From: Pecten maximus
Taxonomy: Eukaryota
Reading direction: 5' to 3'
Assembly: GCF_902652985.1 (NCBI RefSeq)
Contig: NC_047025.1
Coordinates: forward strand, 13,578,001 to 13,642,000
Length of the DNA: 64,000 nt
The notes beneath the pieces are model-generated. The model worked only from the letters and a program-made list of their open reading frames with translations, made no database searches and was not told the origin of the DNA. Shown here piece by piece: positions 41,851-45,406 of this stretch (within the stretch, counting starts at the first letter, position 1; each line of letters begins with the position of its first letter). The translations under genes were made by a program, and so were the position numbers.

Positions 41851-43543
41851 CATTTGGTACCTTGTCATTGTACATGTAAGCTCTACGTCGTATGTTTATG
41901 TGGATTCCTAATAGTAGTCTTATCATGTTTAGTGGTAATAGTTCTTACCTTTCCTTTTTCAAGTGGACGGATCTTTTCCGATCCTGGCTGGTTGTGCGCT
42001 TGAACTTTTATTTGTGTCCTTCAGACATATAAAATATCCTCCAAATTCAGTCTCTTAATGGCCCCCTACGTTGTCTTTGACACTTTTAGCGTTGGATAAT
42101 ATCACTTTTTTGTACCTTCCCTGCAAAGTTAGTTTTCCGCTAATTTACGAAGCATATTCATCCAATGGTTGAACATCTTCATGCTTACATGTATAGTTGG
42201 GTTCTTGCAGGTGTAGATATGATTTCAATTACACCGTATGTACTGCAAGTTACCTCTTCGTGAATGTTGATGCGAGTTATAAAAATCGACGAGAACATAT
42301 CACCAAATATGAAAAATGATATTTAGGCATCGGGTGATACCTGGGCTTACAAGTAGGAAAGGCAATTGTCATTTATGCTAAATTGATTTGTTTGGAGGGT
42401 CATGATAAAAAATAAGAGGGAAATCGCACGCAGTTATTAACTTTTTTGCCGTTGAGGTCGGCTGAAGCTTGACGCTTATTTCATTCATCAATTGTTTGGG
42501 AGAAGAGCAAGTTTGTAGGAATGCAGAGACAATTAGAGGAAACAAACAACATGTTTTATTTTGTGTAATGTTTATTAAAAAATATGCCGACAAATCAATT
42601 TCACTACATTGAATCTGCCGTCACTCCGCATATTACTTTTGACTCAAAGGATACATATACAAGAGAAGTCAGAGATTTTGGCATTTGGACATTAGATTTG
42701 TGCGGCTGACAAAACCTGTGCTTCAACATCTTGTGTGGCTTGACGAAACATGTGCTTCAATATCTTGTGTAGCTTGACGAAACATGTGCTTCAACATCTA
42801 GTGTGGCATTGACTTGAGTCACTTCTTCTTCCTCTCGTAACTTTGTCAAGCCTCAGAGAATATAAAGTCCTCCTTTTAGTTCTCAAAGTTAATTTCCTTT
42901 TATCCGGATCTCAGGGACATAAAGGTCTTCTTGCCTCCAGAACAAGTTCCGTGTATTTTAAAACAATTCTTGTAGTATCAAGCTTCTCCATGGTCTCTCC
43001 TGCGTCTAATACATCCGGATTTCAGTATCTTTCTGTGTTAGAGAAAATTACTTCTGATGAAAAGAAAATATATCATTTTATGTAAAGTAACAAGGGCATT
43101 GAAAAAGACTGACTGTTGATCCCTTGGTCCTCCACAATTAAACAATGTTATCCTTTCATTATGGTCGGAGATTTCTTCTACATCAGTTAGTTCACAAAAA
43201 GTTAACAAGCTTACAAAATTCAGAGATAATGGTGCCCGCTTTCTATAGTGTAATTATAACCCACCATCCATCATGACGTCCAACTATTTCATTTATTTAC
43301 TTTTGAAATATTGTGGTTAGCAGAAAAAGTTCAATACCATTGATAACGGTACCCGGTACGACAGTTAGGTATGATGAATAGGAAATGAGAGTTCTGCATA
43401 AAGTCGTCCCTCCTTCTTTATTTATAGTAATGTCCCTCCCAAAAATGGGATGGACAGTGAGGGACCAGTGAGGGATGAGGGACTGACCCCGTGACCTCTA
43501 ATTAGAATGACCTCTTCACTTTTAATAGTAATTAGATTAACAG

Positions 43544-43735
43544 CAGCGGCGGCGGCTGCTGTGATGACGAGTTAAGCACCTTCACTTCATGTGGCGGTGG
43601 TGGTGGCGGCGGTGGATACGCATGACTGATTCGTGGATACGGTTGACTGCCTCCATGTATGGTTTTCATGTGCCGTAAAAGAACATCCCTTCGAGAACAC
43701 ACTTTATTACACTTTGGACACGACGTGGACTGCAT
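43544..43735 (-). pseudogene. C2H2 zinc-finger, proline-rich ORF truncated by the left TIR
   Basis: MQSTSCPKCNKVCSRRDVLLRHMKTIH followed by poly-Pro; the frame runs directly into TIR sequence. Confidence 0.7.
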
Positions 43736-43779
43736 GGCTGTCAGATTGAATATGAACACCCTTTCTTTTTTAGGTCCTT

Positions 43780-44893
43780 TTATAGGTTTTGGACGTCGCT
43801 TTCTTTGATCCAACTGTTAAATTTCTTTGGATAACCAAGCCATTTTACGTATACTTCCTGAATTCCGTTTCTCTTTCGTCGTTTTAACACCCTTTCCACC
43901 TTGAACAAGTCATCCCTCCCTTTGTTGACCTTTTGTAGCTCGCTGTTATAAAAAGTTCCAGCTATCGAATCTCCGTCGTAGTCAATGATTTTATAGATAG
44001 GTATACCTTGACGAAGGTACCTCGTCTTGATGGTGAAAACCTCTTCTGTCCATTTTTGCTCAAAATCACGTTGGAATGTGAATGGAATTGTTGGCCGATA
44101 TTCTTACTACATCGCCAACTTTAAACTTGAAAGGTTTTGAGCTTTTCTTTTTCTTAACTATCCTAGGTTTCTTCGAATCAACATACAAATGTTTCCACAC
44201 CAATGCTTCATTGGACTTCTCAATACCATCCGGTGATTTACCATCTAGAGCACTGTGGGGCCTGGCATTGTAATTGTGGACGATATCCTGTAGAACATCT
44301 AAGTACTGATAGGTTCGGTTGTGAGTGAAATATCGATACATCAACACTTTCAGTGTCCTGATTACTCTCTCAGCATAATTTGCATGAGTGACGTTATGAG
44401 TGACATAATGCCCGACTCCCTCTTTGTCTAAATATTGTTTTACCCATCTATTTTTCCATTCACTGCCCGGATCCGATCTGACCTCTTGTGGTTTTCTACC
44501 CTGACCAAATATGTGTTTGAATCCGTCAATGATAGACTGGTGTTATTTATTCTTCAAAGGAACAACCCACAAATGACGCGAAAACACGTCAATGGCAATG
44601 AATAAGTATCGTATTCCATCGTTTTCTTTCTCTAGGTTTGAGACGACAGCTAGATCAACATCCCATAAAGCATCCATACCTTGAGATATTACTTTTCTAG
44701 TCTTAAACTTGTAGCGTAGAGGACGTTGTAAGCTGTATGCGTCTATATCCTGAAGGAAACGACGAATGGCATGAATTCCGATCTTGTACTTTCCTTCTTT
44801 CTTTAAATATTTGTAAATCTTTTCTGGTCCCGCATAACTGATAGGGTTGTTTAAATCAAAGTAGATATTATCCAAGTGTTCCTTCCAACCCAT
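43780..44893 (-). pseudogene. Polinton-type rve integrase with C-terminal chromodomain, disrupted
   Basis: WDVDLA...IDVFSR, RSDPGSEW and YAERVIRTLK form the DDE triad. FKVGDVVRIS, KWTEEVF and the chromodomain VKWLGYPKKFNSWI follow. Stop at 44543-44545 and frameshifts near 44090 and 43920. Confidence 0.92.
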
Positions 44894-45406
44894 ATTTAAA
44901 GAATGAATCACTTATCTTCTTTTAATAGTTTTATATGTTTGTCTGAGGTAATACACATCAACGTTAGCTTATGTATACACATTATAAACTGTGCAAAAAT
45001 AGCTATGATGAAATAAAGAGGAGGACTGTCGCAACTAATACGTTAAGTAAACGTTACAAAGCTTGGAAAAACCGCGATTGTGTTAAAATAACAATGATGC
45101 AATACATGAGGTTAAGATACGCATCACTATGTGGGGGGTAGCTTGTAAGGGACAATCTGGATATATATAGAATGTCACCGGGAAAACCCAGCTTGTTCTA
45201 AATATATACTCATCCCTCATTACTGTTAATCTAATTACTGTTAAAAGTTAAGAGGTCATTCTAATTAGAGGTCACGGGGTCAGTCCCTCATCCCTCACTG
45301 GTCCCTCACTGTCCATCCCATTTTTGGGAGGGACATTACTATGAATAAAGAAGGAGGGACGACTTTATGCAGAACTCTCATTTCCTATTCATCATAGGTA
45401 GTCTAT

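Follow-up and report, generated by a model that had tools for sequence, protein, structure and literature searches.

At the locus lies a 2,023-bp element spanning positions 43372-45394 of the window (the whole 64,000-nucleotide stretch of Pecten maximus DNA that was analyzed), which occurs as a single copy in the assembly and has both termini intact. Together with the duplicated target site, it occupies G000:C11:13621366-13623400. Its features are collected in Table 1. As had been described from the letters of the window, its terminal inverted repeats (TIRs) are 172 bp long, with the left arm at 43372-43543 pairing with the outer 172 bp of the right arm at 45223-45394 with 3 mismatches, and the 6-bp target site duplication (TSD) TAGGTA is present on both sides. 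The outer end of the left arm was fixed by comparison with six other loci of the same family.

Table 1. Features of the 2,023-bp element and its target site (window positions)
Feature	Position	Strand	Remark
Left TSD copy TAGGTA	43366..43371	+	One TAGGTA at the empty site (contigs from 3 of 4 runs)
Left TIR, TGATGA terminus	43372..43543	+	Outer 172 bp of the ~531-bp parental TIR
Junction of the ~6.6-kb internal deletion	43541..43546	.	Unique in the assembly
First 64 codons of the C2H2/proline-rich ATPase gene	43544..43735	-	ATG at 43735; reading frame terminates within the TIR
Polinton integrase with C-terminal chromodomain	43780..44893	-	Three frames, Pfam
Right TIR, ends TCATCA	44960..45394	+	Remains of the parental ~531-bp arm
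Second deletion, 103 bp, in the inner right TIR, upstream of the integrase gene	45157..45158	.	
Right TSD copy TAGGTA	45395..45400	+	

From the window sequence alone, a boundary lying one base further out, with ATGATG ends and a 4-bp AGGT duplication, is also possible and had been put forward as an alternative, but it was ruled out by the empty site and the six other family loci with both ends. At five of these six loci the TSD is a perfect 6 bp (ATAAAA, CCAATA, AACCTC, ATCCAT, and CGCTAG), and at the sixth it has one mismatch. The bases immediately outside TGATGA…TCATCA vary among them, with an A outside the left TGA in two of six and a T outside the right TCA in none. The expected empty site with a single TAGGTA was recovered as a joint running from 43365 to 45395, with 6 letters that match either flank, in contigs from three of the four runs (X1, X4, and X5 yes, X6 no; three samples, three studies; X1 may be the assembly's own sample). 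Taken together, the TSDs at the other loci and the empty-site joint establish that the insertion is real and polymorphic, the site still being empty on other chromosomes. The original prediction was therefore right to see a genuine insertion of a Polinton-derived deletion product with a 6-bp TSD and TGA-TGA ends. A right-flank paralogue, 94% identical and 21 kb away, was also considered as an empty site, but it comes without the left flank and is thus uninformative.

The integrase gene of the element is interrupted by two lesions that the three closest relatives lack, an in-frame stop codon at 44543-44545 and, near 44087, a frameshift. On the minus strand, Pfam detected the chromodomain (E 8e-10) and an rve-like core (rve_3, E 6.7e-4, below the cut-off), and the integrase of a relative showed both rve and Chromo over the cut-off; a PDB search with the integrase gave chromodomain matches only. 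The Polinton-type integrase with chromodomain that had been predicted is thus present in its domains but not as an intact gene. Likewise, the C2H2/proline-rich frame cut off by the TIR proved to be there, and its identity is that of a 5′ stub of an ATPase gene: a C2H2 finger lies upstream of the proline run (Pfam zf-C2H2, E 3.9e-5), and in the relatives the gene runs for ~520 codons into an A32-like ATPase (Pox_A32, Pfam E 2.5e-4 to 4e-3, below the cut-off). An autonomous Polinton would encode both a protein-primed family B polymerase (pPolB) and an integrase with an uninterrupted frame; here, the pPolB gene is deleted and the integrase is broken. The 2-kb copy is thus unable to copy or insert itself, and at most its ends may be usable by the enzymes of another copy.

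Through the ~6.6-kb deletion, the left TIR, once ~531 bp long, was reduced to 172 bp; its inner part was lost together with the pPolB gene and most of the ATPase gene. Its inner break falls within a GGC triplet tract that encodes the poly-proline run of the ATPase, and at most ~3 nt are common to both sides of the join. At the second deletion, contigs of three of the four runs carry 103 letters that the window does not. The window alone spans the ~6.6-kb junction among 11 DNA matches to the junction region in the assembly, a genome-wide search for a 20-base junction pattern with 1 mismatch allowed found one place only, and the 40 exact end motifs in the genome include no other inward-facing pair ~2 kb apart. 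Other 2-kb copies with the same junction and different TSDs, on which the proposal of a mobile unit turned, were not found in this assembly, and this is the very outcome that the original prediction had itself named as pointing to a deletion in place.

A genome search for relatives returned at least 114 matches, and 40 of 67 candidates were scored. Among the matches listed, the closest were full-length copies of 8,662 bp (C12) and 8,392 bp (C10), which are 95-99% identical to the element on both sides of the junction; more distant subfamilies are ~80% identical and measure 8.1-9.1 kb. Their TIRs are ~531 bp in the two closest copies and ~200 bp in two others, within the Polinton range of 100-1500 bp. 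The common layout is a TIR, a zinc-finger/polymerase gene, then, on the opposite strand, the genes for the ATPase and the integrase, and a second TIR, and the ATPase is 32-43% identical to those of capsid-bearing elements in the same genome. The polymerase had a first Atlas match at 0.98 and falls with clusters carrying PF03175 at 0.97-0.98, the Atlas cluster having PF03175 on 40% and PF02945 on 24% of its members, whereas Pfam reported Endonuclease_7 only, below the cut-off, and a PDB search gave no match. It also contains motifs of a protein-primed family B polymerase. On the strength of its Atlas neighbors and these motifs, it was assigned as a pPolB. TIR length, a 6-bp TSD, a pPolB, an rve integrase, and a packaging ATPase are thus all found in this family, as in Polintons. 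A search of viral contigs found no match to the integrase or the ATPase and one match, at 40%, to the polymerase.

The parent had been expected to be a 15- to 25-kb Polinton with pPolB and capsid genes. The copies found are 8.1-9.1 kb long and hold three genes, so that the expectation held for pPolB but not for size or capsid. Native capsid probes matched four of four control elements and none of six copies of the TGATGA-ended family at E 0.1; these probes came from other elements of the same genome and were named capsid on the basis of sequence motifs. Pfam PF21738 gave no match on the assembly in a search that had no positive control and is thus uninformative. Intergenic gaps in the family are at most ~570 bp, except for one stretch of 1,265 bp in one copy, and the gap between polymerase and ATPase in the C12, C10a, and second C10 (L026) copies contains no ORF of 90 aa or more, with no protease probe applied. 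A split Polinton, in which a capsid-bearing partner would have the same TGATGA ends, was also considered, and none was found among the 12 orphan-end or short-copy loci inspected out of those with the 40 ends; what these loci contain is pieces of TIR, family genes in broken form, repeats of other kinds, or gaps in the assembly.

Among 22 metagenome loci, one (L095) has the same terminus and the same integrase-ATPase order, with an integrase 73% identical. Another metagenome contig of 10,582 bp (L083) has inverted repeats at both contig ends, an ATPase, and an integrase, with no capsid match. By their motifs, its broken frames resemble a different polymerase type, and it possibly represents the same three-gene layout with another polymerase.

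The TIRs of the 2-kb copy differ at 3 of 172 positions, compared with 2/172, 2/172, and 3/164 in full-length copies, and between its integrase and that of C12, 10 of 847 sites differ; the like TIR divergence and the near-identical integrase point to a similar age for the 2-kb and full-length copies. On the window branch, the private changes of the integrase comprise no synonymous and 4 nonsynonymous ones plus 1 stop in 280 codons, compared with synonymous-to-nonsynonymous ratios of 1:1, 5:4, and 5:4 in three relatives. Although these counts are small, they fit decay without selection. Between subfamilies, the integrase dN/dS is ~0.055 by a rough count, which indicates that the three-gene form has replicated under selection.

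Shortened copies of the TGATGA-ended family (49 bp, 511 bp, and 2.0, 4.6, and 5.7 kb) have different structures, none of which was found twice, and one-sided and internal deletions are frequent among the older copies. One of them, a 4,561-bp fold-back at G000:C6:45379534-45384094 (L031 935-5495), carries the integrase end at each of its termini; its arms are 98.9% alike over 1.5 kb, its center contains several small inversions, and its TSD, CGCTAG, is perfect, making it a candidate copy-back genome. A 49-bp hairpin of two termini alone lies at G000:C2:23025612-23025660, and a 511-bp fold-back lies at G000:C13:20580539-20581049, each with a TSD match of 5/6. The 2,011-bp stretch at G000:C12:32764116-32766126 (L021) is near in size to our element, but its structure is different, being a tandem duplication of one element end with a partial integrase and host flank.

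Other kinds of Polintons share the genome. An ATPase search returned at least 153 matches, and 150 of 280 candidates were scored. An AGTAGT-ended family (L131-L138, L149 with L151-L158) has polymerase, ATPase, and integrase in tandem order; in eight of eight loci read through, these three genes were matched and no capsid match was obtained, and in five of the eight, which measure 6.9-9.9 kb, the ends are clear and 6-bp TSDs are present. Its integrase is ~43% identical to that of the TGATGA-ended family. This family, too, has rearranged copies: a 7.7-kb fold-back on C13 near 11.585-11.593 Mb (L139+L140, 4864-12569), with 3.3-kb arms 98.9% alike and the perfect TSD ACACTC, and a 3.0-kb ATPase-only copy (L134 1307-4335) with the perfect TSD TACAGC. 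The fold-back and ATPase-only copies with perfect TSDs suggest that rearranged genomes are insertable as units. GAGAGA-ended elements on C3 near 52.03-52.045 Mb (L141+L142) and on C10 near 20.22-20.234 Mb (L143+L144), of 13.6 and 11.5 kb with TIRs of 1.7-2.0 kb, contain integrase, ATPase, and capsid-like genes with no polymerase match, and many near-identical ATPase matches suggest that they form a multi-copy family. Complete Polintons with both polymerase and capsid are present in the genome as well.

The 2-kb element is probably, if by no means certainly, the single-copy remnant of an 8- to 9-kb capsid-less Polinton whose middle was lost after the full-length copy had inserted here. We favor a deletion in place because the parents match both sides of the junction, the junction is unique, the ages are similar, no selection is visible, and the shortened copies are diverse; the commonness of degraded Maverick loci, given as 96% of vertebrate loci in the excerpted text of PMC8097293, counts for it too. 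Against it stand the intact termini, the fold-back and ATPase-only copies with perfect TSDs, and the small substitution counts. Moreover, none of the contig rows listed displays read support at the junction itself, an observation that would also suit an assembly error, with the 6.6-kb gap being a collapsed full-length insertion. We regard such an error as highly improbable, since the sequences joined are unlike and share at most ~3 nt, which is atypical of repeat collapse, and since independent runs bear out both the flanks and the empty site.

The intact ends and TSD, on the other hand, are what a unit insertion would leave, and a tentative alternative, less likely than deletion in place but to be taken seriously, is that the middle was lost by template switching during extrachromosomal strand-displacement copying, after which the 2-kb genome was inserted once, by its own integrase before this broke or by that of a helper, and did not spread. 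In its favor, the same genome holds two fold-back copies that carry the integrase end at each terminus and are flanked by perfect 6-bp TSDs, and such forms are easier to explain as products of template-switch replication than as simple deletions. Absence of a second copy, the further lesions of ordinary decay, including the second deletion, and the commonness of one-sided and internal deletions in older copies speak against it. The unique junction does not separate the two, because a single unit insertion would likewise leave one; it shows only that the 2-kb element did not spread. Integration as a 2-kb unit is thus unproven rather than excluded. It is very unlikely, by comparison, that the element belongs to an autonomous, integrase-only cut-and-paste lineage on the way from Polintons to Ginger-like transposons, as had also been proposed. 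It would agree with this that a 2-kb unit holds, between TIRs with TG...CA ends, an integrase gene that is almost complete, together with the region upstream of it, but there is a single copy, its integrase is broken, and its branch shows no purifying selection. The integrase also groups with those of pPolB-bearing parents (support 95/98) in a tree of 10 rows without a Ginger sequence, and the Ginger hallmarks given in the excerpts of PMC2836005, TGTNR ends and 4-bp TSDs, are absent here, the element having TGATGA ends and a 6-bp TSD.

For the favored deletion in place, a plausible course of events can be outlined. The parent would have been copied by its own protein-primed polymerase, as known Polinton biology leads one to expect, with the TGA-TGA repeat serving jump-back priming, and its DDE integrase would insert the product at the terminal CA. 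A family member did insert at TAGGTA, duplicating 6 bp; on this view it was full-length, the deletion would have followed in the chromosome, through break repair or through slippage in the GGC tract, and the shortened copy would have decayed without selection. No full-length allele was seen at this very site, which counts against this order of insertion and deletion; the site being polymorphic, a population test could tell whether Polinton deletions arise before or after insertion.

The family resembles Polintons/Mavericks in its long TIRs, 6-bp TSD, short repeated end motif, and rve integrase, and in the pPolB and A32-like ATPase of the parent. In contrast to the 13-25 kb, TIRs of 100-1500 bp, and TSDs of 5-8 bp that the available part of 10.1101/2023.08.22.554363 gives for Polintons, the parent measures 8.1-9.1 kb, with no capsid gene found, and the 2-kb copy retains only a broken integrase. 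The end motifs of vertebrate Mavericks in the excerpts of PMC8097293, where they are linked to jump-back priming, are (AGT)2, (AG)3, and (AC)3A, and the parental (TGA)2 is absent from that list; such an end joins a jump-back repeat with a retrovirus-like terminal CA. According to the sections of PMC4028283 at hand, capsid genes, whole or split, are present in 59 of 72 Polintons, and its Table S1 records shortened, N-type members as well as P_Pd1.1 (10,777 bp) and P_Gi1.2 (11,019 bp), which lack capsid, penton, and protease and keep the ATPase. No amplified N-type family was found here, the junction occurring in one copy of this assembly. The parent likewise keeps the ATPase with no capsid gene, but, as far as those table entries describe P_Pd1.1 and P_Gi1.2, it differs from them in forming a multi-copy family that is under purifying selection, in being ~2 kb smaller, and in having an AGTAGT-ended three-gene sister family in the same genome. 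As far as these entries go, capsid-less, ATPase-positive Polintons are already known, and the parent is a small variant with an end motif that was not found listed. Our literature search, with Kapitonov and Jurka 2006 and Repbase outside its reach, gave no title on TGA-ended or three-gene animal Polintons, and the partial text of PMC8502044 contains nothing on capsid-less forms.

Ginger1 and Ginger2/TDD elements, as portrayed in the excerpts of PMC2836005 (TGTNR ends; 4-bp TSDs, 5-bp for TDD; an N-terminal zinc finger in Ginger2), are similar in their small size, TIR length, TG...CA ends, and integrase-type DDE enzyme; unlike them, the 2-kb element terminates in TGATGA, is flanked by a 6-bp TSD, and shares 95-99% identity with parents that bear a polymerase. 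With defective viral genomes of the deletion and copy-back types, insofar as the partial accounts describe them, it shares kept ends, a lost middle, and dependence on a helper. Internally deleted non-autonomous transposons, such as Ds or deleted P elements, also keep their ends, lose the middle, and depend on a helper. In contrast to both of these, no amplification of the 2-kb copy was seen.

Taken by itself, the 2-kb copy is a broken deletion product of an ordinary kind, and its value lies in pointing to a streamlined parent family of Polintons that persists under purifying selection with polymerase, ATPase, and integrase only. Such a three-gene form corresponds to the transposon side of the virus-transposon continuum that is put forward in the available sections of PMC4028283. 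A packaging-type ATPase that is kept without a capsid raises the question of whether capsids are borrowed from other elements or the ATPase has a role in replication. A wider reading, speculative and in our view rather unlikely, is that the genome houses a working ecosystem of complementary Polinton parts, comprising two capsid-less replicator families of three genes each, one TGATGA-ended and one AGTAGT-ended, polymerase-less capsid elements, and defective genomes of the deletion and copy-back types, including the 2-kb copy, that were born in extrachromosomal protein-primed replication and inserted as units. If so, the defective genomes would be a fossil record of Polinton replication and of the borrowing of functions in trans.

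Elsewhere in the window, a 258-aa frame at 45407-46183 on the minus strand ends 6 bp beyond the right TSD. Its Atlas neighbors carry Herpes_teg_N (first match 0.96; the family is on 73% of members), with a recognition score below the threshold, and this gives a lead toward a possibly deubiquitinase-like protein. It has paralogues of 94% identity (21 kb away, inverted) and 78% identity (C4). Two frames on the minus strand, at 35381-35947 and 39046-39669, resemble exons of a secreted host protein, with kringle-like and PAN/apple-like patterns. Two long tandem-repeat arrays lie at 8366-11496 and 51061-52116.
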